Of a DNA stretch of 64,000 bases, positions 3,834 through 59,515 are shown one piece after another. The stretch's first letter is position 1; each line of letters starts with the position of its first letter. The DNA is from Moniliella sp. 'wahieum' (lineage: Eukaryota), in contig RSEE01000050.1 of assembly GCA_003971905.1 (NCBI GenBank), positions 372,001 to 436,000 of the forward strand, read 5' to 3'. Below the pieces are notes generated by a model that worked only from the letters and a program-made list of their open reading frames with translations, did no database searches and had not been told where the DNA came from. Made by a program: the position numbers and the translations under genes.

Positions 3834-3930
3834 TCAAGCTTCAACCTTCAAGCTTCAAGCTTCAAGCTCTTCAAGCTTCAAGCTCTTCAAGCTTCAATAT
3901 CCAACGTTCAACGTTCAAACGTCAAGTTGA
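3834..3930. promoter_or_regulatory. (TCAAGCT)n / (TCAACGT)n heptamer array upstream of MIX23
   Basis: tcaagcttcaaccttcaagcttcaagcttcaagct...caacgttcaacgttcaa, 95-190 bp upstream of the MIX23 ATG. The repeat is seen directly; a regulatory role is inferred. Confidence 0.6.
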
Positions 3931-4126
3931 ACATTAGGGAAAATGTTGAAACTACAGAGCACCTCCATCGCAACCAAGGCCTCGGGCAAGTGACCCTCCT
4001 GGTGACACCACTTCCATGTCATGTCACGATACCATGACTTGATCGGCCAAGGCGCTGGCAAGCGCTAGTAGCTGCCGTGTTGGTCCACCGCTCGCACGCT
4101 CGCCAATGGATGCCGTCGCACCTCAT

Positions 4127-4240
4127 TGTAGGGGCGATGCCCAATCATTAATCACGCCACCCTGCGTGAGAGGCATCACCGGCTCTTATCCGCCTAGACG
4201 CTCCCTCTGCTTCCCGATGTCCTCGCCTATATGAGGCCCT
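4127..4240 (+). mobile_element. Repeat family C copy 1, LTR-like relic
   Basis: Begins TGTAGGGGCGATGCCC. Shares CACGCCA(C/T)CCTGCGTGA..GCATC and CTCCCTCTGCTTCCC with the reverse complement of 46735-46838. TATA-like CCTATATGA. Confidence 0.55.
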
Positions 4241-4249
4241 ACCCTATCC

Positions 4250-4760
4250 TCAGGACTCAGACTGAGTACTGACCTGAGCCTCAGGCCTCAGTCTTAGTTC
4301 CCATAGCCTCCTGTACCTCTCCTCAGAACATCCTCGATTCTCCTTCTTTCGGCAGGTTATGAGCCCACGCCTGGGGGCGGCGCCTCTGCTAGCTGCCTCC
4401 CACCCGCCGCTGCGTCGCCCTGGCAGGCCACCGCGTTTCTTACTACCAGCGGCGGCCATTCAACCCACCCTCCCAGGAGCTCGGTGCTCCTCCCCTGCGA
4501 CAAAACTTACCCTGGCGGCCTGAAGACTCGCTGGTCGATACGAGACCTCCGCGAAGGCACCGGCTCTGTCCCGGCTCAGACCGCCAAGCCCTCCACGAGG
4601 CACTAGCCCTTCCACACGGCAAACATCTTCCTCACCTCGAGCTTGCTGCCACCGGCGTCAGCGCTCGCCCTCCTGCGGCCCAGCTACCCGACCTCGTCCA
4701 GGGAGAGGGGATCGACCTTTTCCCTCTGACTCCAATCCATTGCCTTCTCATCGATCTCAT
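4250..4760 (-). pseudogene. Possible degenerate retrotransposon gag remnant
   Basis: Stop-rich region next to an LTR-like relic. Fragments RIDQR and RRGLITCRKKENRGC loosely resemble Ty3/gypsy gag and a decayed zinc knuckle. Confidence 0.25.
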
Positions 4761-5182: not shown

Positions 5183-6015
5183 ATACCCACAGTTCCGTCA
5201 CTTGACTCGTCCCCGGGCGTCGCCCAGGCTCCGCGGACTCCGAAGGCTGGTGGAGCCAGCCACATGAGCGCGGAAGCGCGCGGAAGCTCTGCTTGCCACC
5301 ACCAACGCGTATCTCTCGGGTCGCATGGATCCCCTACGCTGCTGTCCTAGATACGCTTGCGCATCCGTTGCGGGTTCCCTCGTCGCTGCCTGGGCGTGAT
5401 CTATGATGGACGGATGAGGCTGGAGAGGCCGAGGATGAGGATACTGAGTACCGAGTCGAGTTGAGTGAGAGTACTGGTGCTTGAAGCTTGAAGCTTGAAG
5501 CTTCAAGTGGTAGGCCGATCACGATCAGGTGGGGAGATGGAGAGGGCGGGCGCACGGCAAGGGCGAGGGGCAGTGCATGGGCGGGGCATGGGGCCAGCGT
5601 GACGTGTGTGTGACAGGGGAGGCAGGAGCGCTAGGAGGCGAGGGAGCAGGATGCGGATGGATGATGCATGTGCATGCATGGTGCCACACGTGACTGTGAT
5701 CTGGGGCAGGGGGCCAAGCCAGCGCCAGCCATGGGGCATGGATCGGTGTGGATAGGTAAGCGGTACGCCCGCCGGGGCTAGCCGGGCCTAAGTACTAAGT
5801 GCTAGGCTAAGCTTGCGCCAGACGCTGGGCGGCAGATGCAGCAGCCGAGCGTGGCGTGGCACTGGGTACTGGCGTGGCGGCAGGGCGGGTGGCAAGCGCC
5901 GGTGGCTGGTGCAGCAGGCGCACTGAGACTGCGGCTCAGCGCTGGCTTTGCTGGCTGGGCTGGCGCGTGCGCTTGGGCACCCGTGGCTGCAAATGGCCGA
6001 GCTGGCCGGCCCAGC

Positions 6016-6042
6016 GCAGCAGCAGCAGCAGCAGCAGCCGCC
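6016..6042. repeat. (GCA)n microsatellite
   Basis: gcagcagcagcagcagcagcagccgccgc. Confidence 0.8.
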
Positions 6043-6379
6043 GCATGCCGCAGCACGCAGCAGGCGGCTGCCTCTGCGCTGGCACGGGCGCACTGCGGTG
6101 CGGCTGCATGTGATCGATGATCGATGATCGGGCAGCGCCAGGCGGCAGAGCCTGCGCTGCGGTGCGTTCGGTGTTCGGTGCGCTGCGCTGCCCGTGCTGG
6201 CCACAGCCAGCCGTCCCCACGCGCCCCCGCCCTCCCAGCCAGTGCCAGCTGCCCTGCCCTCGGCCACAGCCGCCGTTTTCCTTCTTCCCCCTTGCCGCTC
6301 GCCTCTCTGTCTGTCCCCCTCGCAGCCCCCCACACCCGCTCTACCCCCCCCTCCGACCACCCCCCTGGACACGCCCCCC

Positions 6380-8135: not shown

Positions 8136-8187
8136 GCGTCTTGTGTCTTGCGTCCTGCGTCCTGCGTCTTGCGTCTTGCGTCCTGCT
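8136..8187. repeat. 7-bp tandem repeat (TGCGTCY)x7, downstream of the C2H2 gene
   Basis: tgcgtcttgtgtcttgcgtcctgcgtcctgcgtcttgcgtcttgcgtcctgc. Confidence 0.8.
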
Positions 8188-9581
8188 TGCTTCCCCATCA
8201 TCTTAATCATACGAATCGACTGCATTCCAAGCTTTCCAGGCTACCGGAAAGATTGCCCTCGCATAGGCTTGTGACAGGGATGGGGAGCGGAGGCACCTGG
8301 GGCCCCTCTGCAAAGCAATGTTCTCCCCCCCCCCCATGTCACCGGTCACCCTCCGTGCCCCCCGCTTGAATCGTCCCCTTGTGGTAGCGTCGTTCCGATT
8401 CGGTTGTTTCTCCATGCTCTCCGGATACGTGGGTGCGCGCACAGGTTCCAGATTTCAGGATCCAGGTTCCCCCCCCCCCCCCCCGCCCGGCCATTTGGCT
8501 TCCCCGCAAGACGCGCGGGACTCTGATCCACTCGGGCTCCGTGACCTGGTGCCCGTCGTGGCTGTTTCCTCGTGGCGGAATGGAAATTACCAGGAGAGAC
8601 CCCACACCAAATGGGTGGGCTACTGGGCTACTCCCCCCCCCCCTCCCTGCGGCCGATACTGGTTTGAGTGTGGTGAGAGCTGGGGGTCTCGCCGTTGGGT
8701 CGACGGGGTAGAGATCGTTCACGACAAAAAAAAAACCATTTCTACATTGGGATGTGCCTGGCCAGGGTGTTCTCCTCTTCCTGGGCACACGGTTCCGTCT
8801 TGGGTCCGCAGAACGCACACCCCTATGCTATGCTGTGGTCCTTAGGATTCGTACGATCCCACACCCCTCTGTGCTAGCAATGAATGGCTTTGCTGGGATC
8901 AGGAAGGCGCATGCCCAGCGTGCCTGTACCATCGGCGGAAAGAACATTAGCTCCTACCCGGCTTGCTTATCTTGCACTGTTCGCCCGACGGCCTATCCAT
9001 ACACCCTACCGATCGATGTTATTTCCTCTGCCCTCTCTTGACACCCTTTAGGACCACGGGGAGCACACTTCTGCGTACCCTCGCCTCTTCCGCCATGATG
9101 ATTGATGATTGATGATTGATGGTCTCGACAATGCACCCAATCCCCTGATGGTCGTTGGCGACGTCGGTGCAGGGCCAACGTCTTGGCTGTGTCGCCATGT
9201 CACATGTCACGCCCCGCCGTGTTTCGTTTCTTTCCTCTCGCTTCCCCGGTTCGAGGCAGGCTCTTGAGACTCGACGCTCTGGACGGCAGCTGTAGTGACG
9301 AAAGAGGAGAGGGAGAGGGGCATCGTCTCGCTCTACGAATTATAGACCAGCCCAAGGGGAGCAATCGATTTCTAGCGTTTCTCTGGTGTTTTCTTTTCCT
9401 AGTCGTACTGGTTCGGGGTGTTGTGTACCGATGAGTACCGTGCGCATGAGTACTGAGTGCCCTCACCGGCATGGCTGGGACGAACACCAAGAGGTCCAAA
9501 CCGGACCTTGAACAGAAGAAAGGGCGGTGAGATTCTGAGAGCCAGAGCAGGTCAGAGTGCCCAGAATCGATGGGCCAGCTA

Positions 9582-9990
9582 TGATTCGATGATCGATGAT
9601 CGATGATCGATGATCCCGTTGAAATGAAATTGAAATGTATCTTCTTGGCTGCAGCCGAAGTTTGAAAATGGAAGAGGGTCCGTGCGCTGAGGGGGGAGGA
9701 GAGGAACATCACGTGTCATGCGTGACGCGTCATGCATCATGGATGTTTTGTCCTGCTGGTCAGAGTGGGGATGCTGGCCATCCCGCCGCTGCCCTCCCCA
9801 GCCGTGATGACGTGGCCCACGGGGTGGGAGCTGGTTGCTGCCGCCCCAGCGCCCCCAGCACGCTCCAGCGGCCCTCGAGCCACCCTGGCCCTGTCCACGC
9901 AGCCACCGCACAATGAATGACGCATGACGCGTGAGGTCCGGGGCGGAGCATGATCCACGACGCGTGACGCGTGGATGACTCGATGACGTC
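9582..9990. promoter_or_regulatory. (TGATCGA)n and (TGACGCG)n heptamer arrays upstream of the phosphatase gene
   Basis: tgatcgatgatcgatgatcgatgatc (9590-9615); tgacgcgtcatgcatca (~9723-9739); tgacgcatgacgcgtga (~9918-9934). Confidence 0.55.
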
Positions 9991-12283: not shown

Positions 12284-13505
12284 TCTCAAGTGGGTGATGC
12301 AAAGAGACAGGGAGAGCGGAGAGGGTGCTCGTAGAGGGTGCTAGCTCCAGGACGGGTCGGCTGGTTTTCAAGGTGATGGTAAGGAGGAGGAAATGACCGT
12401 CTAGACCCGCGATCAGCCCCACCGACTGTGGAGAACAGCTAGCAAAAAAAGCTTGATTGCCCCTGCCGGTCCGACCCAAAGATTGGGTACAGCGAGCGCG
12501 CAGCACTATAAGTCTGTTCCCTACTAGGAGGGGGGCCAAGCTATATATATTCTGTCCGACTTTTGGCCGGTGGCCAGGGGATTGCGTGTGGGATGGAGTA
12601 GGCATGGTTTGTCATACGATGACGAGAAGTGCAGTCGCATGGGCCAAGCGCGTCGCGTATACTTGGACCGGCTCGTCTCTAACACGGTCGTCAAATGCAA
12701 AGAGCCGGACAGGCAGGCCCTCACAACGGTGTGCAATATCCTACTTCTCCGGCGCCACATCCGTTTTCTTTCTTACTGTGACCGACTCCGCCTAGCCTGG
12801 GTCTCGCCTATGTTGCCACATGTGCACATGAGCCTCTCGCACAGTACAAGTGCTACTACATAGTCCGCCCTCATATCACCCTGTCATCCGGACGCCCGGC
12901 CATATATAGGCGTCGGCGGCGGCTGCATTATGCATTACATGTTACATCACTGGGTGGTAGGTAGCGCAGAGGCGGAGATGCCCCACATTGCCGTGGTTGC
13001 CAGCGCAATGCATAATGGATGATGGGCTGGGGGCTGCACAGCCGAAAGCACTCGCTAGTTAGTCACTAGTCGCTTTTGTCACTGTGAGTGAAAAGGGAGC
13101 AAAGGGCCCCAGCCCGGAAATAAGATCGAAGAGGAGACAACAGCTGCCACAGGCGCCTATGTTATTACGAGAGAAAATGGGCAGAGCACGACTAACCGGT
13201 AACCTATGTGATAGTAGTAACTGTGTCTCGAGTACTAGGTACTATATTCATGCAACTGCGTCACTGCGTGATGGCCGATCACTTTTTTTCAGCGGGGTAC
13301 AGCCATCGTGCAACGCACAGCCGAAACAAAACCCTCTTTCTGTGGAGTTCCTATTGTACCGCTCGGGGCGGGGGCTTCCCAGACCTGATATATGATACCG
13401 GGTATCGCCTCGGAGATATCTTCCCGTTTTCATGCTCTTACTCCCTGCTCCTCGATGGTTGATGAAGGGAAGTGTAGTGTCGGCATCTCTATACTGCATC
13501 CATAT

Positions 13506-13695: not shown

Positions 13696-14419
13696 TATAA
13701 TAAACGGGGAGCAGCTGGCAATAGAGCAAGACATCGGATGTGGATCTTGGTCTCTGAAGCAAGGCACAACAAGTACAACCATTAGATGAAGCAGAGACGG
13801 GAGAACAATATGAGGAGTGGCGCATGATGCGGAAATGGACAACGTATTCAAATTTGAGTCACCTATATGGAGAGGCCAAGAGCGACAAGACCCTACTGTG
13901 AGCCTCATCTCTACAACTCCGGGACGAAGACAGGAGAAAGAACAGCATGCATCTTCTGCCCCAAGGCTGAGAGTGCGTGTCAATGGGTCATGACAATCTC
14001 CACCGTTGCCTACCCGCGAAATTCAAAACATATCGTTCATGCCCAATTGGCACGAGCTCCGCATTCTATCCAAACACCCATAAGCAAGGAAATGCTCATA
14101 TGCAAGGGGGAGCCGCCAAGATGGAAGTCCTGGCTGGACCACAAAGACGTGTCCACTGTTCGAGCCGATATCAAAGGAACTCACCTCCTTCTCGCCGCAG
14201 GTTTCATCAGGGGTCCTCATTGAAGCTTGACGGCGGCCAGACTGGGAGTTGGGTATAGATTCAACGTTCACGTCGGCCCATCGTGATCGAGTGTTCTGAA
14301 GTCCAAGGAGTACAACTACCATCCCATGCGAACTTTTTGTGCGCATCGGCAACATTCTGGAGAAGCAGGAAGGCGGTGGAGACAAACGGAGGAGGTGGCG
14401 GTAGATGGTGTTGGCATTG

Positions 14420-14695
14420 CTAGTCGAGAGCTAGTCAAGCATTCATTAATCATTCAAAGCTTCACTTCGAAACCACTAGCTAGTAGTCACTAGTGACTAG
14501 TGAAGCTTGAAGCCATAAGTCACTAGTCACTTATGGTCATGCATGGTCATGTTGCTCGCTGCCCCCGGGGCCCCAAGCGCCAATCAACCCGTCAGCGCCG
14601 TCAGCGTACGGGGTTGAACGTTTGAACGTTGAACGTGCGTTGTACATAGTACGACCATCGACCATCGATCATCGATCACCGGTCACCGGCACCGA
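14420..14695. promoter_or_regulatory. Dense mixed heptamer array upstream of SEM1
   Basis: tcactagtgactagtgaagcttgaagc...tcactagtca...tgaacgttgaacgt...catcgatcatcgatcaccggtcaccgg. Confidence 0.6.
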
Positions 14696-15242: not shown

Positions 15243-15277
15243 TCCACGCCCAAATGATCCACGCCCAAGTGGTCCAC
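15232..15277. repeat. 15-bp tandem repeat x3 spanning the SEM1 stop codon
   Basis: cgcccaagtgatcca cgcccaaatgatcca cgcccaagtggtcca. Confidence 0.8.
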
Positions 15278-17049
15278 CTGATCCCTTGCTCATTCTGTTT
15301 CTCTGGGGGTATCATCGGGCCTGTTGGCTATAGAATGACACCCCCCGGATGCCACGTTGAGATGCTCATGAAAGAGTTGCCGATAATGCCGATATGGGCT
15401 GTGTGCTGGTGGCTGATGTATCCCCAAGTCCACGAACATCCAGGGCGCTGTCCAACGCGGCAGCCTCTTCATGCTTGCATGGCAAATTCAGTGTCTCGAC
15501 GTGAGGCCCGTGAGGCTTGAACAACTTGGACATGATGCGTCAATTATAAACGTTTTGAGCTATATGCCGGAGGCCCGCTTCTTTCAGGGTGCTTGGGCCG
15601 CCCATGGCTGTGCGAGGAACAAACGATCCCCCACTGCCCCCTGTATTGCACTGCCCTTTGGGACTGAGTAACGGGTGCTGTCTTCCCTCGGGTTTGCCAG
15701 GATGACCTCTCTCAAGCAGCTGCGACAGCTTCCTCTCGTATGCCATGGACTCGCAACGGCGTCGACGTTTAACATTTAACCTTCAATATTATGATCACTA
15801 ACTCCGAACAGCCCGCTCTGGATGTGGATCTGACAATATCTCCCAGGGTAGCAACACCAGTAACACGAATACCATTAATGACCAGGGTGCGTTCTGCCCC
15901 AGGGGACAGACACAAAAGCCTCACTCGGCATCCTGATACTCCCACAACCTAAACTTATAATATTCCAACCCATGTTGGCGCCTTGCGTTTTTATATAGTG
16001 GAGGCCCCGGCTGTGGAGGCAAAGGACGAGAAGCGGCGTGTGGGAGGAAGGCCAGGGGTACTACGGACTCCCGAATTACGGGAACACGTACCAGGAACGG
16101 AGGTGGGCCCCACCCTAAGGGATTCAGGCAAATAGGGCTGAGGCTAATGATGGCTGTGCTCCGGTTGGGGTGGTACACGAGGAAACCCAAGACGCCTGTT
16201 GTGGAATGTCAGAAGGATGAGTTGCTCTGACTGGTGGAGCAAGCAGAATAGGACAAGAAGGCCATTAGGCCTTAGGGGGGGCCAGAGGGCCCTGACCTGT
16301 CGGCAACTCTCCTCTTCTAGTATAATTTTGGCTTTTTGGCGCTAGCAAACGCACGCGCTGAACGATCGGGAGAACCTGATATACTAGGTGCCGAGAGTTT
16401 CTTTGTCCCATTGCATCAACCATCGTGCATCAGCGCCATCAGCGGCTCAGCGCCATGAGCGCATGAGCGCACAGCCATCAGCTTGATGCTTACGCTCTGT
16501 ACGTGGCATGTAATAAGAGCGCTGAGGCTCAGTGCCCATTCTATGTTTCGGGTTTACCACGTTTACCGCCTCTCCTTTTGGGCGCAACGATTGTGTGGCA
16601 GTATTATGCGACCCACATTTACCGTGCCAGCTCTGGGATATTGTACTAACCCTAAGGTATTATAAGTCTGCCTGCAATTTTCTTCCATCTCGACTGTAAA
16701 CATGTAAACGGCATTGGCACACCAGTGCTCAATCCACTGGCTTCGATGTTGGCGGGATGAAGAGGGCGAAGATGATCGACGAGGGATGATCGATGAGGCT
16801 CGTCTTGAGGCCGCGAGGTCCGAGGGCGCCCAGTATGCGAACGTGCAAACGACGAACTGCGCCCAGCAGCGCCGACTGACCGGGGCCTCCTTGGGCCTGT
16901 GCCCGTGAGCGCGTGAGCCGTCGTCAGTGTACTGGGGCGAAAGCGCTCAAGGGGAAAGTAGGGTTGCGGCCAGGGTCTGGGGGGAACTGCTCTTGTGCGT
17001 CTCCCCTCCCCGCAACGTGGAGGCGGAGCCAGGAGGCGCATCATGCTTC

Positions 17050-27097: not shown

Positions 27098-27271
27098 GTT
27101 GTCTAGAGTTGAAGGTCGAACGGCGAGGGAAGAACACGAGTCCTTCGCAGTTCAGGCCGTTCAAGATGCTCATGTTATGTATGTAGTACATATGGCCGGG
27201 TGACTTGCCGTGCGATCTTGGTGTTGGGTGGCCGCGGTGGCCGTGGCCCGTGTCAGGCCTCAGGGTAGGCG

Positions 27272-27607
27272 TGTGACATGTGACGTGACATGTGACATGC
27301 ATCATTGAATCGTGTGACGCGTGCCGTGTGATAACACGTCGCGGTGGTCGTGCTCTCAGATCAGAGATCTCATGTACCATTGCACCTTCCGGTATATGCG
27401 GCCTGCGCCTTGTGAGTTCCCGAGTCGCGCAGCGTGTGGTCCATCCTCCTCCACGGTCGGCTCTCGTTGAGAATATGGGGGTCACATGGATGGAAGAGAG
27501 TGCGCAAGGGTCAATGACCACGACCGCATGTCACACCCCCTTCTCATCTCGATCTCATCCAACTGTCTCTTCAAGCTTCACTAGCTTCACTAGCTTCACT
27601 AGCTTCA
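27272..27607. promoter_or_regulatory. (TGACATG)n array and (TTCACTAGC)n repeat upstream of the metalloprotease gene
   Basis: tgacatgtgacgtgacatgtgacatgcatca (27274-27304); tcaagcttcactagcttcactagcttcactagcttca (27572-27607). Confidence 0.55.
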
Positions 27608-28962
27608 CTTTTGGGTTATTGGGTGCCAGGGTAAAAAGCCATATGATGTGCTCAAACGATGTCGATGACACGCATGTGACATCCGACCACACCTGCAGTT
27701 GCTAGTTGCTGCGCGATGATTGATGAACGGGGGGGGCACAGGGTACAGAGTTGGAGACCAATGTGAACCTCTGTTTTTCGGTGAGCTCGAAAGGCACTCA
27801 AGTGGCTGCGGACATACAGGAAAGCTCAGTGCTCAGTCTGAGCGCGGCTCAGCTCAGTACCCACAGTGGAGTTATTGAACGTTTCCCATGTATTCCCTTT
27901 TCCTATCAGTGTATCAATATCCAATTGATAACCCACGGAAAGGGGCCGGTGAGGGGCCGGGTGACGCTCCTCCCGTGCCTCTCTCTGTTCCCGCCCCCCC
28001 CCCCGCTGCCCTCGCTCCTTTTTTGTTTTGCCATTCGCGCTGCCCCCCCCTTGCCCCTTTGCCCCCTTTTCGTTGTGCGCGCAACACACCCGCACACCCG
28101 CCCCGTAGACGCACAGGCCGGTTCACGTAGCTGTCCATCCGCAGCGCGACGACAGTCCAAAAGATTGAAGGATCCACAGAGTATGCCAAACAAGGGCAAC
28201 GTGCGCTACTGCCATCATTGTGGACGTTGCAGGGATGTTGATGGACGACAACCGAGGGGAGAGAGACAGAGTCCCTAGCCCATAGCGGTGATGCCAGGAG
28301 CCCATAGGCCATCATGCATCACTTCCGTCCAGCAGATGCTGCGACCCATATTGGCTCTTGTTTTGCCTGGGAAAGCGGGACCACATCTACAAACGTGTGC
28401 CTGATGTGCGGCGGAGACCCTCTTGGTGTCCAGACCCACTCTTGTGAATCGTAAAAAAGGGGGCTCTGTCCCGGCTTGTGCCGTGCACCTCGGCTGTGTG
28501 GGCCTCTGGCCGTGTAAGACGGTAAAAAACACAACGCACATCGACGTAACGCGTAACGTAACATCAGTTTTGTTGGAGGATTCCATAGCCCGTTCGGCTG
28601 TGTCATCCGGGCGTGCCTCTCTGTCGTCGACTGGATCTGACAAGCGCTCCTACAGTCCTCTAGGCCATTCTATCAAAAGCGTCAACCCCTGAACCAGATC
28701 CCTTATTTCCCCTTTTCTTGTCCACCCACAAACAGACAGCATGTTGATGCGCCGCACACAGTGCACCCACTTCTCAAAAATTGAGTATTACTTAGTAGCG
28801 CTGCTCCCCACCGACGCGTCCTATATCCTCCACATATATAGCCCACTGTCCTTTTCAGTGTAGATGCCCATACGGTAACCTCCTCTTTTCGCTCCCTCGC
28901 CTCCTCTTCTCGCTCCGTCTCCTCCGCCCATTGCGCCTCTCTTCCCTCCCCATACCACCAGC

Positions 28963-30969: not shown

Positions 30970-31454
30970 GGACTGATGAAAGGGAGGTGGAGACGCCAAT
31001 GAATCTTTTGGGAAAGCTACTCAAAAGATGCGTATAGGGACGTTGGTGGCCGCTTTGGCCACGCCGGACATAACCAGCCCGTTCCGGTCCGATCGGCCTG
31101 ATAGTGACTAGTGACTACGCTTCCGCGGCATTTGGGGGGCGGACGAAAGCGGAGGCCCGCGTATAACCTGTAACACTAGTAGGGAGAGTTGGTCGCTCAC
31201 AGAGGGAGACGAAGGCTTGAGTGGAAGTGGTTTCGGTCGGTAGCACCGGAGTCCACAGCAAGGCGCAGCCGGGGATAAGCACGCCAGGGAGCCACAGTGC
31301 TATACGATGGCGGTCACCGGTCACCGGTCACCCTGCCTGCTCCACGTCATCACCCGCAAATAAACATATCAGCGCTCGGATGACTGCCGAAGGAATGCAG
31401 ATCTCGCCTCTTAGCTGCCCCCACAACTTCCACCACCACGCCCCTCTCCACACC

Positions 31455-33208: not shown

Positions 33209-34451
33209 ATGTCCACCCTGGCCGGCGCGTACCCTGCCTCGGCGCTTGTCAAACGCGCCCGCGTCGATGACGACCCCGAGGATGCACCTGCCTCCAAGCA
33301 GATGGCGCTCACCACCGCCCAGGGTGGCAAGGCTAAGGGCCCCGTCCACACGGTCAAGCGGCTGAGCCATCTGCAGGCACCTATTGTGTCCCTCACGGAG
33401 GCCATTCAGTATGTTGCGATTTGGGGCCATACTGGTTTTGTAGGTATTGTACTAACCTCTTTTGCTCCTCAGGCCGAGATTCTTGATTGCAAATTTTCTC
33501 CCGATGGCCAATTCATTGCTGCCGCTGGCGGGGATCACTTCATCTGTGAGCAGCATTCATCCCTCCCCTCATTTGCGGAAGAGACAGCCACTAACCACGC
33601 CTACCATTAGCACTATGGGAGACGTTTGGCGAAAATCGCAATATTGGTCGTTTGCAAGGCCACAAAGGCGGTCACTGCCTGTGTTGGTCGCCTACGGCGC
33701 CAAGGTTACAACCCCGTCTCTACAGTGCCTCTGCCGACTCAACAATCATTGTGTGGAACGGGGCGACGGGGGAGAAGGTGCGCCGTCTGCGCTCGCACAA
33801 GGACGTGGTCAATTGTGTGGCGTGCACCCGAGGGCTGGACCGGGAACTGCTTGTGTCGGGGGGCAACGATGGGTGGGTGCTTGTGTGGGATCCCGAGGGG
33901 GAGCGATGGCCATTGGAACGCATTCGTGTTGGCTACCCGGTTACCTCGGTCGAGTTTTCGAACGATGGAATGCAAGTCTATGTTTCGGGTGTAGACAACG
34001 AAGTGCACGCCTACGATCTGAGTCGCAAGCTCATCAGTTTCAATCTGCAAGGCCATACCGACACCATCCTCTCTTCCTCCCTCAGCCCCAATGGCTCCTT
34101 CCTCGCCACGTATTCGCTCGACTCGACGGTGCGGATCTGGTGTGCGTCCTTTTGTCCCAGAACCTGCAGCGGGTCACGTGGGCCCCCCGACTGGTCCGCT
34201 CGCTCGAAGGCGCTCCTGCTGGATTTGAGGGTCTGCTGATCCGCATTGCCTGGAGCGCCGACAACACCAAGATCAGCTGTGGCGGAGCGGATCGGACGTC
34301 CACGATCTGGGACGTAGAGAGCGGAAAGACACTGTACAAACTCCCTGGCCACAGAGGTACCTGCACCGCCGTCGCCTTCCACCCTGCTGAGCCCATCTTG
34401 CTGTCCAGCTCGACGGATATGACCATGTTCCTGGGTGAGGTGGAGCTGTGA
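33209..34451 (+). CDS. SNRNP40: U5 snRNP 40-kDa WD40 protein (Spf38/Cwf17)
   Basis: VKRLSHLQAPIVSLT, EILDCKFSPDGQ, LYSASADSTI.VW, GHTDTI..LSPNGS.L...DSTVRIW, LYKLPGHRG...V.FHP.EPI.LS.S.D.T.FLGE. Confidence 0.9.
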
Positions 34452-35535
34452 CATGTGATGGGTGAGATGCGAGGAGCGAGGAGCGAGGAGCTTGGGGGTT
34501 CAGCGTTGGAACATGGAAGCTTGAAGCTTGAATGCGTTGAGGCGAGGCGGGGTTGGGGGGCAGCCACGCTGTTGCCTGTAGAACTCAACGTTGCTGACGG
34601 TGGATGCACGCTCAACTTTGATGCATGATGCACAGCGATCGGTGATTGACCCGGGTGGCTGGTGAGATCGAGCTTGAGGTTGGTCTTCTGTATTGGCAAA
34701 ACTGCGCCAAAACGCCTTCTGGCTTCCTAGTACGAACGAAGTGCATGTCTGTCTGTACAAACACGTGAGCTCAGGCAGTGCCTGGCGAAGGACCGACAGG
34801 GACGCAGATGGGATGGGTGGGACAGCACGTGGCTTTGTGCAGGCCGCCATTCAATATTCAGTGGAAGGGTGGTGCTTGGCGCTGGAGTTGGAGCCTGCTG
34901 GGCGCTGGAGCTGGATCTGCGGGGAGCTGGTCTCATTAGCGCGTGGCAAGCCAATATGACGGGATGGGGGGACCGATGGGGATCAAGCTTCAAGTGGCTG
35001 AGTCTGGGGCTGTCCGCTGAGCCAGCCTGAGTACAGTGGCTGGGTGGCTTCGTTGCATGTTGACTGGTGGGCCCTGGCGCGACGTGGGAGGGCGGGGCGG
35101 GGCGGAGGGGCAGTGGCCGCGGGGTCGGAGGGAGGATGTTACGAGGACCGCTGCTGGCTCTTGTCGTGTGGGATGGATGATGGATGATGGATGAGGGTCA
35201 TCCATCCAGCGGAGCATCCGCCTGGCACAGCGCGTGCGTGGGGGCATGTGCGGGAGCGAGCAGGCTCAAAAGTGGAGCCTGGCTGGGAGCGAGCCCTTAG
35301 ACCAAGCGAGCGAGCTGCCTGCGCTCCATGCGCTCCATCCGTCCAGCTGCGGCAGACCGCCCGCGAGCACCAGCATGCAGCCTCCCCGCACCGCCGCCTC
35401 CGTCGCCCCGCTCCCCACCGGCCCCCATCACCTCCTCTTCCACCCGATACTTCTCCTTCTCCTTCTCCATCCCCTTTTCCGTCTCCTCCCCGCGTCCAGC
35501 CCCGTGTATCTGCGGCCGCGGTTCATCTCGCCATC

Positions 35536-39251: not shown

Positions 39252-40409
39252 TTGGCGATTGTTTCCAGTTTCCCATCAACTCTGAGACGTTGGCGATGAC
39301 CCACATTTCTTCCCGTGGATTCAGTCTCGTCTCGCCTTACCTATCCCCCCACACTCGCTCGCACCTTAATTGAAGGTTCTTCCTGTTCCCCCCCCCCCCC
39401 CGCTCCTTATCTTGTTTTGCTGTTGGCCTCTTTCCTGCCTTACTCCCTGGTCTATACTACTTCGTATCTGGCTCGAATTTGCTCTACCCTCTTGGATTTT
39501 GCAGGCGCACCACACCGCGCAACCGAATGTCAGTGCCGTGTCGGGTCGGGTCAGGTCGGTTCCTAAAGACCATTGGTCTTCCGTCCCGTCCTCGTGTCTT
39601 GATTCTCCCTGTTACGGTCCAGGTCAGCCAGGCGCGCCGCACGGAACGTAGAAGGTTTAGTCTAGGTTTGCTTGTGCCCTGGAGGCTCACAATGTATCCC
39701 TTCTACTGTTACACTTATATTGCCTGCAACGCTGGATGTACAGCCGTTTGTTCTAGGGATCATATGATGCACATAATGTTTGTTGACTGTTAGTTATTGT
39801 TCCTGTTCTCTACTAATTCCATGAACCCCCTTCGCACCCACGTGTCGAGCAGACATACCCCCCTCCCTTCCCCTACTACGCCATCCATCCGCACAGAGAT
39901 GCCTCGGCCGACCGTAATGGAGCCTGTACTAACTGCGCGTGGGCACTCTAGGCTAACCATCAAACTAAAGGGGAGATGTAAGGGATAATGGGGGGATGTG
40001 GAGGGGGAGATGTGTGTGGCCAAGTCGGATCTGGATCTTCAACTTCACCCTTCAAGCTTCACCGGCTTCACCTCCCTCTCTTCGAGAAGGCCTTGGTGCG
40101 GAAGGTAAAAACGACAAAAAGATAAAACCTGACCAGCATATACATCAACTGCTCTCTATTGCGCCGTTTCCCCTTGCGACCAGAGGGCACAGTGATTGCA
40201 ACGAGGACATGATGCTTTGTGAAAGAAAAAAAACACAGAAAATGGGCAAGACAAACATAACATGGTGGTACCCGGGCCTACTTTGCTTACGCCAGCCGTT
40301 GCAATAAAGACTCGAAACTGGCGAGAACGAGGAGTGAGCGCGCTGAGTGTTGAATGTAGAGCGTTAAGCGTTTAACGGGGTGCGGGGAGCAATCCGGTAT
40401 GCGCTCATA

Positions 40410-41476: not shown

Positions 41477-42247
41477 GGTGGGCAGGGGGGCGAGCGGTGG
41501 AGAGAAGGCAGATGGGTCGCTGGGATGGAGGAGGGGAGAGGGGAGAAGGGCCACCTGGGAGGACCAGTGGGGGGAAAACCGAGCCAAACCGCATGCTTTG
41601 GCTGTCACTAGTGTCACTGGCGGGCTGGGCACCAGCAGGGGCACAGGCGCTGTGCCAGAATGTGCCAGGGTTGGCGGTGGCCTGGGATGCATGTGGTGTG
41701 CTATAGCGTGTGCTGCGTCGCCATCGCCAGGCACAGCAGCACACCCAGACTGCCGCCCTGCCACTCCGATAGCCGATACGCTGGCGCACTGCGCCCCAGG
41801 CTGCGCGCTTTGCCCCCCACACAGGCGCCGTGCCCCATGCGTCCAGTGTGCCGAGCCCCAGGCGGCGCACCTGCCCAGTGTCTCCGTCCCCCGGCGCCTT
41901 ATCGCCGCCCAGGCCGACGGGCCCCTGCCCGTTTGGGCGAGCAGTGCGCCCCCAGACCGTCTCTCGGCCGGAGCTACGCCGACCGCTGATCCCCGATCGA
42001 TGACCAGGGGAGAGTATATATTTAGGTCGCAGATCGCTGGCTGGTACAGCAATTGGTGCGATGTGGTTGGGACAGAGCAGACGCCCAGACACGCATCCTC
42101 AGTTCTTGCCTTCCTTCTGGGGGAACGCAGAAGAGCAACGAGGAAGAGGTTCCCTCTGCGCCCGCGCGTCGCAAAACGTGCGAGGAAGAACAGAGTAACA
42201 GAGACATCTAGCGCGATCTAGGAACCGGAAGTAATTATTGCCTACTT

Positions 42248-43267: not shown

Positions 43268-43827
43268 TTTGCTCAACGGCTGAATCGCAGATGGAGATGA
43301 AGAGGAAGGATGGGCACAATGTTTCTTGTGTCGGCGTTGTTGATGGCGCAGAACTGTATACACGAGAGTGCAGACAACAAAGGAGCGATATGGGTATCTT
43401 CAATGATCCATGTATGGCTCCTCTTTATATATACAATTGCACATTCACATCAGCATTCGATTCTTGGCCCCTTCTTCCCGGGGTTTCCCCTTTTCATCCA
43501 TTGGCGCAAGTTGTCTATACCTGATGAAAAGGTGTTGGTGTGGTATCAATATCATGCATCATGCATCATGTATCATGTGACCGCAGCGAAGGGTTAGGAT
43601 TCAATCATTAATCATGCATCTTCGTTCTTCCCTGAGACATCAAAAGGGGGAGTTACCCTCAGCTTCGGAGTTCTCGGGCCTTCTCATCGGCTTGAATTTG
43701 CTCATGGCTTATTGATTGATTGATCGCACCTAATCTCTGCAATTGTAGTAGCTATCCATTTTGACGACGCGAGGATACTACGGCACCAAGACGGCGAGCA
43801 AGTTGTTTGCGCATTGGAAGGAGTTGG

Positions 43828-44058
43828 CTACTAAGTCTCAGTGGAAATGGTTCCTCGCTCGGATGTCAACCACGTTCCTCCGTGTCCATACGCGCTTCCT
43901 AGGGTACGGACCGGATGGCATGAGCCGGAGGGTCCTGATATCCTGGCGATCCCCCTGGTTCCTTGACCCTGGTGGCGCCCCTAAGTAACCCCCGCAAGAT
44001 GAACGGTTAGGTTTAGACGTAGCGTTCCCCTGTCCCAGCCTTCTTAAGTCTGCCAATG
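43828..44058 (-). repeat. Repeat family A copy 3
   Basis: Homologous to copies 1 and 2. Confidence 0.85.
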
Positions 44059-44783
44059 AAATGGACGTTATCTAAAGGGGCATTTTGTAAGCAGGGGTAA
44101 CATATGCTTTCCTATACATTAGAGTGCCAGGGCAGAACCCTATCGGATATAGGCGAGCTAGACTGGCTTTGGTGAGATCTGAGATGCGAGTGGCTGATCG
44201 TCGTTGGTCGTAGAGATATAGTTCACGCCTGTCAAATGTCACAGGGCTGAGTGGCTGGGCCGCAAACCGTGTTCGCTTCATACCTTCCTTTCCCTTCCGA
44301 GCCACGGTTCTATAACTAGCTGGTATATCGCACCAGAACTAAGAGCTATTAGGGGAGGTATGGGGGCTTCGTCTATGCCCCCCCCTTCAAGATGCTTCAA
44401 GGCCAGTAGGATGCTGGAAACCATCGGAACCTCCGAGTTGTGTTGTTAAGAAGCGGTGACCGGTGACCGGGGCGGCGTGGCATATAATGCAGATGGGCAC
44501 TGAACCTGAACGCACTGCGGTGTGGTCACGGCACGGTGATCATCTGTTTCATTTTAGGGGGTGGGTGTAACATGCCTATTAAGGGTCGGGCGATACGAGT
44601 GAGACTAAGTACCAAAAGGGAAGCAAAGGATGCACTGGTATTAGGGGAAAGGAAACAGGAACAGCGAAGAGCAGTGAAGAGACGATTTACCCGATTAGCT
44701 ATGAGGACCGTGACAGATGTGGATATTGTCACGGGCGAAGACGGTCTGGCAATAAGCCGGGCGGAGTTTACGCGCACCCTTTG

Positions 44784-48901: not shown

Positions 48902-49150
48902 AGTCACCCACCGTCACCCACCGCTCACCGGTCCCTGCTCAGCCGCTCAGCCGCAGTGCCTGGGGCTCAGCTGAGCTCAGCCTCTCAGTGGCTCACCGCT
49001 CACCGTATCCGACAATCTGACACAGCCTCGCTGAGTAACCAGTACGCAGTATGCAGTACGGGCCATCCATCAATATTCAATCACCGATCACGCGACAACA
49101 CGGACCACGGATGCTTACCACACGTCATTGATCATCGATCATCATGATCA
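48902..49150. promoter_or_regulatory. Heptamer arrays upstream of MDJ1
   Basis: tcagccgctcagccg, tcagctgagctcagcctctca, tcaccgatca, tgatcatcgatcatcatgatca. Confidence 0.5.
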
Positions 49151-49573: not shown

Positions 49574-50648
<1,075 letters not shown>

Positions 50649-51357
50649 TCACGTTGAGTGGCACCACTGATGCATGATGTATGATGTATGATGCGCGGAT
50701 GCACCGATTGTACCGATCGCACTGGAAATGAATCGAGTCGACCATTGCATGAGCCGGAGGGCGCCTGGACGCCGTTGTCTCCACCGTTGGTGCGGGGGAG
50801 CGAACGAGTGTTGGTGGGGCTAGTGTGAGCCTGGACGTTCAATGTCACAAGTAGCAGGCTGTAGCAATCCCCCCTCCCAGTGAAATGGTCTTTTCCTCCC
50901 GACAGCCTACTGAAGAGACGAAGCGAATCAGCATATAACCCGCCACTAAGCAATCCTATCAAGATGCCTTGGTATCAATTAATACGAGGCTGCGAGCACG
51001 GTGGCCAGCAGGGTGGATGAGAGCGCGGAGGCGGCATCCTGGGCCGTGCCGGGTCAAGTGGAAGCTCATGGACCAGGCAGTTCCGCATAGCGGGGGCGGT
51101 AGTGGCGTAGGGGGCAGGGGGTTCTCACTCCAGGCCCCATTTCACACTTGGGTCCTTGAGGAGGGATGGGTCCAGGATCGCGAGAGCGCAGTACTCGAGC
51201 CCAAAATAGTGAGTTGCGCGAATGAAACGAGGCGCGGCATTCTCGTTACGAATGATCATAATCATTGGTCACTTGCCATCTGCCAATGATGGCTCAAGTC
51301 AGACGATGCCTGCAAACCCGGTTCCGACAAGCCCGTATGGATCCACACCTCAAGAGT

Positions 51358-52688: not shown

Positions 52689-52824
52689 AGCGGGCGCTGA
52701 TGGATGGAGCTTGGTTGCGGCAGAGCGGCGATTCACGCTCCAGACAGGGTAAATGGGGTTTCCCGGCTGCCTTGGCGGTGTGGGGAAACGGGGGCTTGAG
52801 GCGGAAATGCATGGGGCGGAATGC

Positions 52825-52915
52825 CATCACCGATCACCGATCACCGATGGTTCCCGCCTAAGGCCTAAAGTTAGGCCTAACGTAACGTCCAAGCTTCAAG
52901 CTTCAGCGCTTCAGC
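52825..52915. promoter_or_regulatory. Heptamer array upstream of PEX2
   Basis: tcaccgatcaccgatcaccga...cctaaggcctaaagttaggcctaa...caagcttcaagcttcagcgcttca. Confidence 0.55.
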
Positions 52916-56058: not shown

Positions 56059-57499
56059 GGTGCTGGGCAAGGAGGCGAAGCGCTGATGCAGCACCTCGGA
56101 CACGGGCGCAGACGCAGACGTGAGAGCAGACACAGCCACGTGGCGGGGGGAGGAGGCGTCGGGGCCATGAAAGCCAGAGCGGAGGAGGCGAGGCTGGATG
56201 CTGGCTGAGGCGGAGCAGTGCGGAGCTGGCCGGACAGACGGCCGGCTGACTGCTCGCTGCGGCGACGAGCAGCCGCTGGCTTCGACCGGTGCAGCCCGCA
56301 TAACCCTCACCCATGCCCGTCCACGTGGAGCCCAGGTGGCCTCTGCCGCTGCACCCGCCAGGGCACGTGACGTCACCCGTCACGCTCTTCCCGAGTACTC
56401 CGTCTACTGAGTTTTATTGTGCAGCCGCCAAGGGAACATTGAAATTGTGCCCCAGCGATGCCACCTACCACAAACCGCTTGACAGGCAGAATTGCGGCCC
56501 CACTGGTCTCGATACTTAGAGACGACTCTCTTGTAAGTACTGAGTGCACTGTCTCCTGTCCAGCATGCCTCACCTCTTGGATCTTAGCCCCGCCAACGAA
56601 TGATCCTTCCTCTCGTTCGCAATTGACTGCTTTCGTTGATGGCTTTGAGGCGCCGTGGAAAATGCTGAAGTGCTGAGTCATGTAGACTCTCGGATCAGAT
56701 CGATCAGATGCAGATCTCGACACGTGCTACTTAGTGAGAAAGCAGAGGAGCACGAGGAATGCGCGACCCTGATAGGCGCGACGTTTCTTTGTGCCTACTG
56801 TCTACTAGTCAGTTGCTAGATAAATCCAGTTAACTACCAGTTGAAATCGCTCTCCTCCGTTTTTCTGTCGAATGTTGATCGTCAGAAAAAGGGAGTTGCT
56901 CCCCTTCGTCGGAAACTCATTGTCTTCCTGACAGGTACCATCATAATTCTGAAGAACTGTCAGGAGTTGGCATATTCACCTCACCGCGGCCAATGGCATG
57001 TGTAAAAGATAAGGCAGATGCATGACGGAGGGAGCTAGACAAGAGAGTGTGGATACAGTGGGTGAAATGGTGAAAAAACGCAGATCAGACACGTAGAGGG
57101 ATAATCGATAATCGATGACATGTGAAACGAGGGTTCCACCCCAGACGCGGAACCGTCGACTGGGCAACCGGGAGAGAAGCCAAAAGGGAGGGTGTGGGTC
57201 CGGTCGAACTGTCATCGGGACCTTTTGGTGAAGTAGGATTCATATGGTGCGAAAGGAGAATGCCTACCCCCAAAAAGCCCAAACAAGTCCGACCGGATTA
57301 ACAGACTGAACGTAATACGTCGATGAAGCAAGCAGGTGCAGCAGGGCTCTTATTGACGCCCATTTCCCACTGTGGCTCCCCGGCGATTCTTGTGGCCGCG
57401 GGTAGGGAGATGAGACTGGGCGCGACCGAAGAAGAGCTTGGAGGATTTCGGATGCAGCTCTGGTCTTGAATATGACCATCGCTCGGAAGCCAGATGTGG

Positions 57500-58478
57500 T
57501 CATTACGTTCCCACAGGGCTGCTGCCTCGGCGTCAGTGCCGACGGCAGGCAGAAGCGAACGTTTGCTCGTCTCATTCCCAACGGAACCTTGCGGGGAGGT
57601 GGAGTTCGAATGTTGGGAAAGGGGATGCCAACCCCCAAGCCCACAGCCAGTCCAACAATCAGGAAGATAACGACGAAAATGCAAATGCGCATGGTGCGAA
57701 TGGCGTTTTGGTGAGAACGCACGTACTTCTCACTCTGTTCCGTAAGTGGATCGGACTTGTCCTGGGCATGATGTTGCGCCAAGGAAAATCGTTTCCAAAA
57801 CGCAGCACCAGATCCTTGTACGTCCCATTCAGCCCCGTCCCCGTTGAATCCCCAGAAGGCTTCTCCGGCTTGAGCTTGACGAAATTGCTTCTCAGTGCTG
57901 AGATTGGGACTATCGCCCATGCCCGGAGCGATGCGGACCGGCCCGGGAGTGATTGGCTGGCCTACAAGCGAGCCATGGTCCTGCGCAGCGTCGAGGGTTT
58001 ACGCTGCATATTGCTAGCACCCATATACGACTGGAGCGAACCTTGACTAGGCTGCGCATGGTGGCGAGAGGAGAAAGCGTGTAAGCTGCGTCGGAGAAGG
58101 GAGGCTTACGAGCCGGCCGTTGCGCCGGTGCCTGTGCCTGGGCAGGCAACCCATGTCCCATTTCATGCTGAGGGCTGGACTGAAATTGCTGGGCGTAAGC
58201 CGAAGGAGACACCACCCCAGCCCGTCCAACGGCAGCCGACGGCATAGCCACCCCCCCGGGCACGCGTCCTCCTGCCCCACTAAACCCGGCTGGGCTGGGT
58301 GGTTGCACTCCGGGCGGCCTGGAGCGCAGGGTGACTCGCCTGGCGTGCCACAGCAAAGGCATAGGTTCCACGAATGCGTCTTTAGAAGTGATGGAAGACT
58401 CGGAGCTGGAAGAGTAAAGATTGAGGTTTTCCAGCAGCTCCCCTGGCGGTCGCGGTGGTGCGCATGGGCGCAGACATG
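57500..58478 (-). CDS. Hypothetical protein with C-terminal transmembrane helix (ends approximate)
   Basis: Frameshifted ORFs 57910-58686 and 57264-57920; WDVQGSGAAFWKRFS followed by TM ICIFVVIFLIVGLAVGLGVGI. Confidence 0.6.
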
Positions 58479-58785
58479 GTAAAGAGCGTGGTGGGTGTGG
58501 AAAGAGAGGGGAAGGGGGGGGGGCTGGGAGAAGAAAGAAAGAAAACAAGAAAGAAAGGAAAGGTGGTGGTGAAGCTTGAAGGAGAAGAAGGTGTTCTCGA
58601 AGCTGAAGTGATCTGCAGACGGTAGTTGAAGCTGCCCTGTACGCGGGCTCACACTGCCGCCCTCGACGCAACTGAGGACCACGCATACAGGCGAACGGCC
58701 AGTACAGGGCCTGCGCTTCTCTCCAGTGTACTGCAATTCCCTCAGCGTATTACAATTCCCTCGACATGTGATCGAGGGGGGGGTA

Positions 58786-59515
58786 GATGATCGATGATCG
58801 ATGATGCAGATGATGGACAATCTGCGATCTTCAGGTCCAGCGCCCAGCCTTGAGCCAGCATCCGCGACAGACCAGCACCAGGCCACAGACTGACAACCGG
58901 CGACTGAGCTCAGCAGCATCGCACAGGGCGAGTGACCCCGGCCCACAGCAGCCTTCCGCCAAGACGGTCCTCTCTGCCGCCGTGCGGATTGCAACCGCAC
59001 ACGGCCAAACGCTAGCCGCATGCGGCAAATTAGGCGCGGGGACAGTGTTGGCTGGAACACAGATCGACGTAGCAGGCTTTCATGCTTGCAGCTCCCGGCG
59101 GCAGTCATGCACTCAGCAAGGATGTCGACGGCACCATCATCGATCGCTGATCATCGAACGGTCATCGAGGTCATCGCCCGCACTACCACGCAGTGCCGGG
59201 CCGTGCCTTCAGAGCTTCAGCGCTCCAACGCAACGGAATTTAATGTTCACTTTCAATCACCCACTCCATCACCTTACCAGTCCTTAGGCCTTAGGCCTTG
59301 GGCCTTATAACCGGTCGTGTGCACCACCGGCCGTTCAATCAATGATTCGGGATTCAATTTGAATTTACTTGCTGGCAGTCACTAGCTAGTCACTAGCCAT
59401 GTAGACAGCTTCTTTCGGCAAGTGGGGTCGGCATGTCGCTAGTCACTACTAGTCAACCCAGTCAACACCACACGCCTTCATCGACTTCATCAGCGATGAT
59501 CGATCGATGACCGAT
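58786..59515. promoter_or_regulatory. Cluster of heptamer arrays upstream of the TM-protein gene
   Basis: tgatcgatgatcgatgatgca (58787-58807); tcatcgatcg (~59138); ccttaggccttaggcctt (59282-59299); tcactagctagtcactag (~59379); tgatcgatcgatgaccgatg (~59497). Confidence 0.5.

Follow-up and report, generated by a model that had tools for sequence, protein, structure and literature searches.

Background

The closest described counterparts of the sequences analysed here are the footprints of cut-and-paste DNA transposons. The hAT, Transib and MULE transposases and the RAG enzyme form hairpins on the flanking DNA; these are opened by host enzymes such as Artemis, end joining repairs the break and footprints remain (PMC5499845). 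The target of Hermes, a hAT element, is symmetric (nTnnnnAn) and is duplicated over 8 bp (PMC10512250). Target-site duplications (TSDs) of 7 bp are known in Basidiomycota for Kyakuja (KDZ) and hAT7, which are reported from Agaricomycotina and Pucciniales, respectively, and not from Ustilaginomycotina (PMC12730594), and hAT families with 7-bp duplications are annotated in Repbase (PMC4455052). Here, we analysed a 64-kb stretch of DNA from Moniliella sp. 'wahieum' (hereafter the window; positions 372,001 to 436,000 of contig RSEE01000050.1), in which heptads made of a TNA anchor (N being any base) and a 4-bp palindrome recur between genes. We propose, with a probability of roughly 0.6, that these heptads are the excision scars (footprints) of a cut-and-paste DNA transposon and not a binding code.

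As in the footprints of hAT-type elements (Ac/Ds, Tam3, Hermes), MULE and Transib and in V(D)J coding joints, a duplication is retained and the target consensus is symmetric. Furthermore, as in hAT-type footprints and coding joints, the flank is copied in inverse over a few bases, which replace or extend those at the junction, and the number of bases added or lost varies. The classical footprint patterns of Ac/Ds and Tam3 serve as comparison, and Hermes reportedly prefers nucleosome-free DNA. The closest systems, which are already known, are the footprints left by hAT-type excision and the coding joints of V(D)J recombination. What is new relative to known footprints is that the target is of 7 bp and centred on TNA, that the putative scars are so dense and that they have grown into promoter-proximal heptad arrays. 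Unlike hAT-type footprints, the scars would stand at about one per kb, would have grown into tandem arrays close to promoters, and would come from an element that is itself deduced from them. Unlike the 8-bp nTnnnnAn target of Hermes (PMC10512250), the duplication here spans 7 bp, its third base being T and its fifth A. Its length is shared with Kyakuja, the termini of which are CA..TG, and hAT7 (PMC12730594) and also with Galileo, an element of the P superfamily from Drosophila. More generally, P-type excision leaves long 3' overhangs and not hairpins, and the target consensus of Galileo is palindromic. No description of TNA+palindrome heptads was found in the open-access literature.

A period of 7 bp with a TNA anchor and a palindromic spacer

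Perfect tandem repeats of at least two copies were counted in the window and in 20 dinucleotide shuffles. Those of period 7 number 51, versus a mean of 3.2 in the shuffles. Repeats of period 6 (52 versus 13.0), 8 (11 versus 0.75) and 9 (8 versus 0.2) are also in excess, and Tandem Repeats Finder returned 123 rows for the window, many of them of period 7. The original prediction, made from the letters of this DNA, had described intergenic arrays of TGA or TCA plus four bases, and the 11 unit types that it named are all present where it had placed them or a few bases away. It had also proposed to vary the spacing between such triplets. At a spacing of 4 nt, same-strand pairs (TCA..TCA plus TGA..TGA) occur 120 times versus 31.2 in 50 shuffles (standard deviation 5.2, z 17.1) and at 11 nt 61 times versus 30.5 (z 5.3), whereas z is never above 3.9 at the other spacings from 0 to 12 nt. 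The opposite-strand form TGA-N4-TCA is not enriched overall (11 versus 15.8 in 50 shuffles).

The spacer is very often palindromic, as had been claimed: TNA followed by a 4-bp palindrome and the same TNA is found 78 times, versus 2.18 in 100 shuffles. The anchor, which had been given as T[CG]A, has to be widened to TNA with any central base. Against the same 100 shuffles, the motif occurs 33 times with TCA (versus 0.91), 33 times with TGA (0.93), seven times with TAA (0.21) and five times with TTA (0.13), i.e. an enrichment of about 35-fold for each of the four bases. Anchors taken as controls are not enriched (ANT 0 versus 2.0, CNG 8 versus 6.1, GNC 7 versus 6.8). Since all four central bases are enriched while ANT, CNG and GNC stay at background, the anchor looks like a symmetric, enzyme-like target.

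In a separate shuffle comparison, palindromic spacers flanked by anchors with the same N number 78 versus 2.43, those with complementary N, which are perfect 10-bp palindromes, 8 versus 2.35, and those with any other pairing 3 versus 3.2. Both anchors are therefore the same TNA, which indicates a direct duplication of it. The perfect 10-mers put forward by the original prediction, such as TGAAGCTTCA, do exist (at 5496 and 14487) but form a minor class only. The spacer takes 14 of the sixteen possible 4-bp palindromes, AATT and GCGC not being seen, and the two strands are balanced (30 TCA loci versus 28 TGA loci). Among the 51 perfect heptad repeats, 31 consist of TNA and a palindrome, versus about 2.7% expected by chance; nine combine TNA with a non-palindromic spacer and 11 have no TNA.

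The elementary event

The maximal perfect period-7 run was measured around each of 70 distinct loci. Its commonest length is neither 10 nor 14 but 12 nt (24 of the 70 loci), and all 24 exact 12-nt runs have two extra matching bases on one side of the motif and none on the other (on the right in 13 and on the left in 11, as read from the rows). By chance, this one-sided form would be expected at 7% of loci (p 3e-11). Likewise, runs of at least 12 nt are found at 63 of the 70 loci versus 12% by chance (p 8.5e-50). The 12-nt form reads TNAxy-y'x'-TNAxy or the reverse complement of this: the palindrome opens with the two flanking bases next to the anchor and closes with an inverted copy of them. 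Since this is the commonest form, the palindrome is copied from the flank. By comparison, runs around non-palindromic TNA-N4-TNA (13 of 10 nt, 16 of 11 nt, nine of 12 nt and seven of 13 nt) fall off as chance predicts, with no peak at 12 nt. The anatomy of the 12-nt form therefore indicates that one event adds 7 nt at a unique TNAxy, five of them as a direct and two as an inverted copy.

Each 7-mer U centred on T.A was also scanned on both strands for the form U + first k bases of its reverse complement + U minus its first k' bases, where k bases are added and k' lost. The diagonal k=k', which corresponds to period 7, is dominant, with 91 matches versus 0.37 in shuffles for (2,2), 60 versus 0.13 for (0,0) and 6 versus 0.53 for (4,4). 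Away from it, the class (2,0), which has the form abTNAxy + y'x' + abTNAxy, gives 21 matches versus 0.00 in 30 shuffles, followed by (2,1) with 11 versus 0.03, (1,0) with 9 versus 0.07 and (3,0) with 2 versus 0.00. The 21 matches of the (2,0) class belong to 14 distinct runs, for instance CGTGAGGCCCGTGAGG at 15500, TGTCACTAGTGTCACT at 41603 and GGTCATCGAGGTCATC at 59160. The repeated part is of 7 nt in five of them, 8 nt in five and 9 nt in three, the fourteenth being a 4-copy 9-bp array at 27574. Since 'ab' is repeated although it is unrelated to 'xy', the duplication is one of 7 bp centred on TNA and not of 5 or 3 bp. The 7-mers that are not centred on T.A make up 15/16 of the sites, yet they give only 13 raw matches in about six loci, one match being a rotation of the array at 27574. 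In addition, TNA followed by two palindromes and TNA occurs twice, at 59379 and 59497, versus 0.13 in shuffles.

Single events (n=33) give an indication of the target itself. At -3, 25 of them have C or A (p 0.002), and at +3, 22 have G or T (p 0.04). Hence, the outer positions of the presumed 7-bp target show a mirror-symmetric preference.

Three other schemes were considered for this anatomy and rejected. Elements of the PIF/Harbinger type have a target of the same T-N-A shape, with 3-bp TWA duplications. However, a 3-bp TNA duplication joined to 2+2 nt of element ends predicts 10-nt runs with unrelated flanks; it is ruled out by the flank-templated 12-nt runs, 63 of the 70 loci extending over at least two flank-templated bases, and the full 7-bp repeat of the 14 (2,0) runs is also unlike such a duplication. 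A 5-bp duplication of TNAxy with two P nucleotides would account equally well for the 12-mers, but both the full 7-bp repeats and the mirror preference at -3/+3 speak against it. Fold-back copying that runs through the anchor is ruled out, since palindromes flanked by complementary N are scarce (8 versus 78 with the same N).

Position of the heptads relative to genes

Since the gene map self-trained on codon usage was too weak for gene models, only confident coding open reading frames (ORFs) were used, and statements on 5' and 3' rest on ORF orientation rather than on gene models or transcription start sites. These ORFs cover 31.9% of the window and hold one of 67 loci (binomial p 2e-10), which bears out the earlier remark that arrays are rare inside coding sequences. 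The density in the window is about one locus per kb (1.05 per kb). The loci are clustered, 26 of the 66 gaps between them being shorter than 150 bp versus 9.6 expected, and clusters adjoin the starts of the C2H2, His_Phos_1, SEM1, Metallopep, MAPEG, GH79, DnaJ and GT2 ORFs and of the ORF at 52275-52826. Of the claim that arrays lie 100-400 bp 5' of start codons, the placement just upstream of Pfam-matched ORFs holds, whereas the distance was only roughly checked. One locus, at 40052, lies in a gap that is probably convergent (3'-3') by ORF orientation. Because nearly all intergenic gaps contain a promoter and a 7-bp insertion destroys a reading frame, a preference for open chromatin and selection against coding insertions are inseparable here.

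Comparison with metagenomic DNA

Metagenomes were scanned with the 21-nt pattern (TCAAGCT)3, which returned 121 loci. Most of them carry the seeded array only, and some are bacterial, for instance one that encodes SSB and ribosomal protein S6 (L073). Over 655 kb of this DNA, non-seed TNA+palindrome loci occur at 0.10 per kb versus 1.05 per kb in the window, and none of the 121 loci is orthologous to it. One contig (L063, positions 1-20021) resembled the window at first, with seven TNA+palindrome loci. On it, an intron-containing AAA_11/AAA_12 (Upf1/Sen1-like) helicase gene occurs four times in tandem at intervals of about 5.6 kb, and each spacer carries TNA+palindrome heptad arrays (CTGAGAT, GGTAACC, TGAAGCT). 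Since they lie in tandem gene copies, these arrays are not independent of each other.

Probable origin: excision of a cut-and-paste transposon

The heptads share several features with hairpin-type footprints. A direct repeat of fixed length stands at the junction, the junction bases are an inverted copy of the flank, as are P nucleotides, and the variants in bases added and lost form a graded and enriched family of the P-nucleotide type. Taken together, the fixed-length direct duplication, the flank-templated filler and the graded spectrum point to integration followed by hairpin-mediated excision. We infer the transposon and its hairpin chemistry from this anatomy and its statistics.

The proposed element would integrate through a 7-bp staggered cut centred on T-N-A in a target abTNAxy, with a weak preference for C or A at -3 and for G or T at +3, and would thereby duplicate 7 bp. 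Its excision by the transposase would leave hairpin-capped flanks, as with the hAT, MULE, Transib and RAG enzymes, and a host nuclease would open both hairpins about 2 nt from the tip. Each flank would then end in a self-complementary 3' overhang of 4 nt, with the sequence xyy'x' at one flank and b'a'ab at the opposite one. End joining that retains one overhang and drops the other would yield abTNAxy-y'x'-TNAxy or its mirror image, i.e. the same TNA on either side of a 4-bp palindrome, with period 7 and a 12-nt perfect run; the period would be 7 because the total length is unchanged at 14 nt. Since T and A are complementary, opening at 3 nt would give the same product, and a deeper opening, at 4 nt, would give the 10-bp palindromes. 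If both repeat copies were retained with two or three filler bases, the period would be 9 or 10; if both overhangs were retained, TNA would be followed by two palindromes and TNA, with a period of 11. Since the scar recreates a TNA target every 7 bp, further insertions could extend it into an array, which would grow by repeated in-register insertions and probably also by ordinary slippage. Concerning the build-up upstream of genes, we infer a preference of the element for accessible DNA, the loss of insertions from coding sequences, where 7 bp destroy the reading frame, or a combination of the two.

Several observations weigh against this origin. No recognisable transposon was found in the window by a scan for terminal inverted repeats with 7-bp flanking repeats, which gave four matches, two of them TNA-centred and consisting of the heptad arrays themselves; general scans of the window for inverted and direct repeats found no element either. 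Among the 300 of 305 window ORFs of at least 90 amino acids that were covered by the Pfam scan, none has a transposase domain, of the KDZ, hAT or any other type. To our knowledge, one scar per kb is far above the density of any transposon. No family with a 7-bp TSD was found reported for Ustilaginomycotina in the open-access literature consulted, and the metagenome scan supplied no independent replication. Positions -2 and +2 are not clearly mirror-symmetric, G standing at -2 in 15 of 33 single events versus 6 of 33 for its complement at +2. Finally, TNA is missing from 11 of the 51 perfect heptad repeats, and the array at 14652 has duplicated a mutated unit without TNA; slippage or some other process therefore also acts on these sequences.

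Alternative explanations

The anatomy might also be produced without any mobile element. A host nuclease, or a domesticated hairpin-forming transposase, would make 7-bp staggered breaks at TNA in open chromatin, and fill-in with hairpin opening, or snap-back synthesis of the polymerase-theta type, would leave the duplication and the 2-nt inverted copy without insertion. Such break-and-repair predicts the same anatomy as excision, it agrees with a window that lacks transposon and transposase, and a resident enzyme would more easily account for the very high density and for the clustering upstream of genes. However, a fixed-length duplication with a hairpin-type palindromic filler is the textbook product of integration then excision, and the graded spectrum of bases added and lost fits a variable opening of hairpins at a donor site. 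Moreover, we know of no resident eukaryotic nuclease that cuts with a 7-nt stagger at TNA. We therefore consider this explanation unlikely. A further reading, to which we give rather long odds, is that the scars are more than relics and that a resident and possibly domesticated hairpin-forming transposase keeps acting on TNA sites in nucleosome-free promoters. It would then generate mutations specifically in promoters, where quasi-palindromic heptad arrays would continually arise and change in size, these having since been adopted as nucleosome-excluding or cruciform-forming promoter elements.

Replication slippage alone has also to be considered, since heptamers that are a 6-bp palindrome plus one base could form slipped hairpins and expand preferentially. 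Many traits of the arrays recall microsatellites born from transposon activity or slippage: they are short, non-coding and variable in copy number. They reach 3 to 8.6 copies, a strand of (A-palindrome-T-S)n self-pairs with one mismatch per unit, and the 11 heptads without TNA as well as the mutated unit duplicated at 14652 are what slippage would produce. Unlike microsatellites, however, they are constrained in unit length and sequence, and they are born in single 7-bp steps with an inverted 2-nt copy. Ordinary slippage acts on an unconstrained unit and on chance proto-repeats, whereas here 31 of the 51 units are TNA+palindrome. It is unable to make the 12-nt form from a unique TNAxy (24 of 70 loci) or the 16-nt form in which two 7-bp repeats enclose a 2-nt inverted filler (14 runs versus 0.00). 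Hairpin stability gives no reason for the inner positions to be T and A only, with ANT, CNG and GNC anchors at background, and the choice of period 7 over 5 or 9 for palindrome+1 units is left unexplained. The original prediction was thus correct in arguing that independent slippage would not converge on a single period and a single anchor, and slippage as the sole cause is quite improbable.

That prediction had favoured two options, namely a general DNA-binding factor that recognises TSA-N4-TSA and assembles into multimers at 7-bp intervals, which might serve to clear promoters of nucleosomes, or a mutational or repair process tied to open chromatin. The strict spacing and anchor, the position upstream of at least nine Pfam-matched ORFs and the clustering of loci are what a regulatory code would show. 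Nevertheless, an array of binding sites has a conserved sequence at a fixed position and orientation, whereas only T and A are fixed here. The central base is free, the spacer takes 14 palindromic values and is copied from the two neighbouring bases (63 of 70 loci), and orientation is strand-symmetric. Most loci have only two anchors; the variants with periods of 9, 10 and 11 bp break the spacing and fit the repair model. A code also gives no account of how its sites arise. Because the spacer is variable and flank-templated, the central base free and the strands equal, the anatomy is that of a product of DNA breakage and repair and not of a recognition code. The factor is therefore unsupported and a regulatory code very improbable, while the evidence favours the second option of the prediction. 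Scars may nonetheless have been exapted as promoter elements. The similar Ustilago heptads that the prediction had mentioned were not found in the open-access literature. Lastly, a sequencing or assembly artefact is scarcely credible, since the pattern is sequence-specific, strand-symmetric and non-coding (one of 67 loci in coding ORFs), and base-calling errors would not be expected to make flank-templated filler.

The window, its genes and the individual loci

The window is gene-dense fungal DNA with a G+C content of 51-68% per 2-kb interval. Its ORFs match the Pfam families C2H2, His_Phos_1, SEM1, RRM, Jacalin, Metallopep, MAPEG, WD40, GH79, DnaJ, GT2, OPT, Ras and amino-acid permease, and pieces of families are matched on short exons. 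The best named relatives of the GH79 ORF all come from Ustilaginomycotina (Thecaphora, Pseudozyma flocculosa, Violaceomyces, Ceraceosorus, Exobasidium and Ustilago). The window therefore appears to come from a member of this group. Since these relatives are only 43-54% identical, the lineage is poorly represented among public annotated genomes, and the source would be a little-sampled relative of the smuts. The permease ORF reaches 80% identity, to assembled contigs only. The tRNA scan found no tRNA gene in the window, and no Rfam family reached its gathering score. A stretch of about 154 nt is present in two copies 31 kb apart (30822-30975 and 62105-62258). The copies are 79% identical in the repeat-finder output, and their alignment has a mean column identity of 83%. 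Rfam gave no match to this stretch, the fold of which is not unusual (z -0.75); a small dispersed repeat or a paralogous untranslated region may account for it.

The first cluster (3808..3922) begins with a single TGA+TCGA event (3808-3818, no strand assigned). Its (TCAAGCT)n array counts about 8.6 units, has two 9-bp variants that bear CT (3860 and 3876) and is adjoined by a (CAACGTT) array. Three loci follow in 4143..4291, the 12-nt single events AATCATTAATCA and ACTGAGTACTGA and the run GCCTCAGGCCTCAG. Between 4978 and 5507 stand TGACTAGTGACT (12 nt), TGAAGCT in two copies, TCACTAG in 2.1 copies with a 10-bp-period variant at 5153, and (GCTTGAA) in 3.6 copies, which ends in the 10-bp palindrome at 5496. 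Then come CTAAGTACTAAGT at 5788 and, at 6111-6130, (TGATCGA) in 2.9 copies, immediately before the start of the C2H2 ORF at 6128. A (CAG)17 repeat (6012-6063) lies immediately upstream of or within this C2H2 gene region, and a run of 20 C is found at 8469-8488.

The cluster 9096..9973, upstream of the His_Phos_1 ORF, contains (TGATGAT) in 3.7 copies, with a non-palindromic spacer, CATGTCA in 2.1 copies, TGAGTACTGAGT, (TCGATGA) in 4.3 copies, TGACGCGTCA, TCATGCATCATG, TGACGCGTGA and GACGCGT in 2.1 copies. TWA-anchored and other single events are found in 12924..13397 (TGCATTA in two copies, TTACATGTTACAT, TAACCGGTAACC and TGATATATGATA). The densest cluster (14220..14694), upstream of SEM1, consists of 10 runs with five different palindromes (AGCT, ACGT, TTAA, CTAG and TCGA/CCGG), some of which share a common TGA. 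It also includes variants with a 10-bp period at 14535 (GGTCATG + CAT + GGTCATG) and a 9-bp period at 14589-14606. The ORF with the SEM1/DSS1 match (14935-15330) harbours a 15-bp tandem repeat of its own, CGCCCAAGTGATCCA, in 3.1 copies (15232-15277). Intact 7-bp repeats with filler are found in 15500..16918, namely the run at 15500 cited above, CATCAGCGCCATCAGC (16428) and GTTTACCACGTTTACC (16552). Two 12-nt events (16265 and 16785) and forms with an 8-bp period (16454, 16709 and 16904) belong to the same interval.

The cluster 27253..27609, which adjoins the start of the Metallopep ORF on the minus strand, comprises TCAGGCCTCAGG, (GTGACAT) runs, CTTCAAGCTTCA and the 4-copy 9-bp array AGCTTCACT, in which a 7-bp repeat with a 2-nt filler has expanded. 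Upstream of the MAPEG ORF at 31415, (TAGTGAC) in 2.3 copies and (CGGTCAC) in 3.1 copies lie within 31102..31332. The interval 34447..35194, between the end of the WD40 ORF and the start of the GH79 ORF, carries TGTGACATGTGA, (GAAGCTT) in 2.4 copies, TGATGCA in two copies, ATTCAATATTCA, TCAAGCTTCAAG and the non-palindromic (GATGGAT) in 3.3 copies. At 40037..40072, a second CTTCAAGCTTCA is followed by the 9-bp-period form CTTCACCGGCTTCACC. The (2,0) run at 41603..41618 is a clean example, in which a filler of two flank-templated bases separates the two copies of a TCA-centred 7-bp direct repeat.

Within 43551..44470 are found (ATCATGC) in 3.9 copies, AATCATTAATCAT, TGAGATCTGAGAT and (CGGTGAC) in 2.4 copies. 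The unit CCTTCCTAACGCCCTTCC is repeated in tandem over 44784-44855, which can be read as 3.5 copies of 18 bp or two copies of 36 bp; this part of the window (42 to 46 kb) is gene-poor and lower in G+C content. GCTCACC in 2.1 copies, framed by a TSD and non-palindromic, TCAATATTCAAT and GATCATC in two copies occupy 48991..49143, upstream of the DnaJ gene on the minus strand. At the start of the minus-strand GT2 (DPM1-like) ORF, 50593..50693 includes ACGTTGA in two copies and (TGATGYA) in 3.7 copies; the locus at 50597 is the sole one inside a confident ORF.

The interval 52826..52915 carries (ATCACCG) in 3.3 copies, GCCTAAGGCCTAA, TTAGGCCTAA, CAAGCTT in 2.3 copies and an 8-bp-period form at 52901. 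In 56693..57125 are GATCAGATCGATCAGA (9-bp period), (GATAATC) in 2.4 copies with a TAA anchor and TGACATGTGA, and in 58570..58815 TGAAGCTTGAAG, (GATGATC) in 2.9 copies and GATGATGCAGATGATG (9-bp period). The last cluster (59160..59579) contains the 9-bp-period run at 59160, (CCTTAGG) in 3.7 copies with a TWA anchor, CTTCATCGACTTCATC and TCTCAGATCTCA, as well as the two runs with paired palindromes, TCA + CTAGCTAG + TCA at 59379 (11-bp period) and TGA + TCGATCGA + TGA at 59497.

Other heptad arrays have no TNA anchor: TGCGTCY in about 6.4 copies (8138-8182), CCCACAC in three copies (20411-20431) and GCGAGGA in 3.3 copies (34469-34491). A model of TNA-centred scars leaves them unexplained, and they may result from ordinary slippage or off-target events.

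Significance

If the heptads are excision scars, this genome would hold an unusually dense and legible record of DNA-transposon traffic, with about one scar per kilobase, each of which would preserve both the 7-bp TNA-centred target and the mode of hairpin opening. The target and the chemistry would thereby be defined for a transposon family not yet described in Ustilaginomycotina. More generally, the heptads would invite caution, since a periodic 'motif code' in promoters could be the outcome of repair and not an array of binding sites. The scars would also show a concrete route from transposon excision to the birth of heptanucleotide microsatellites. The excision of such an element would be a steady source of indel variation in the promoters of a compact fungal genome.

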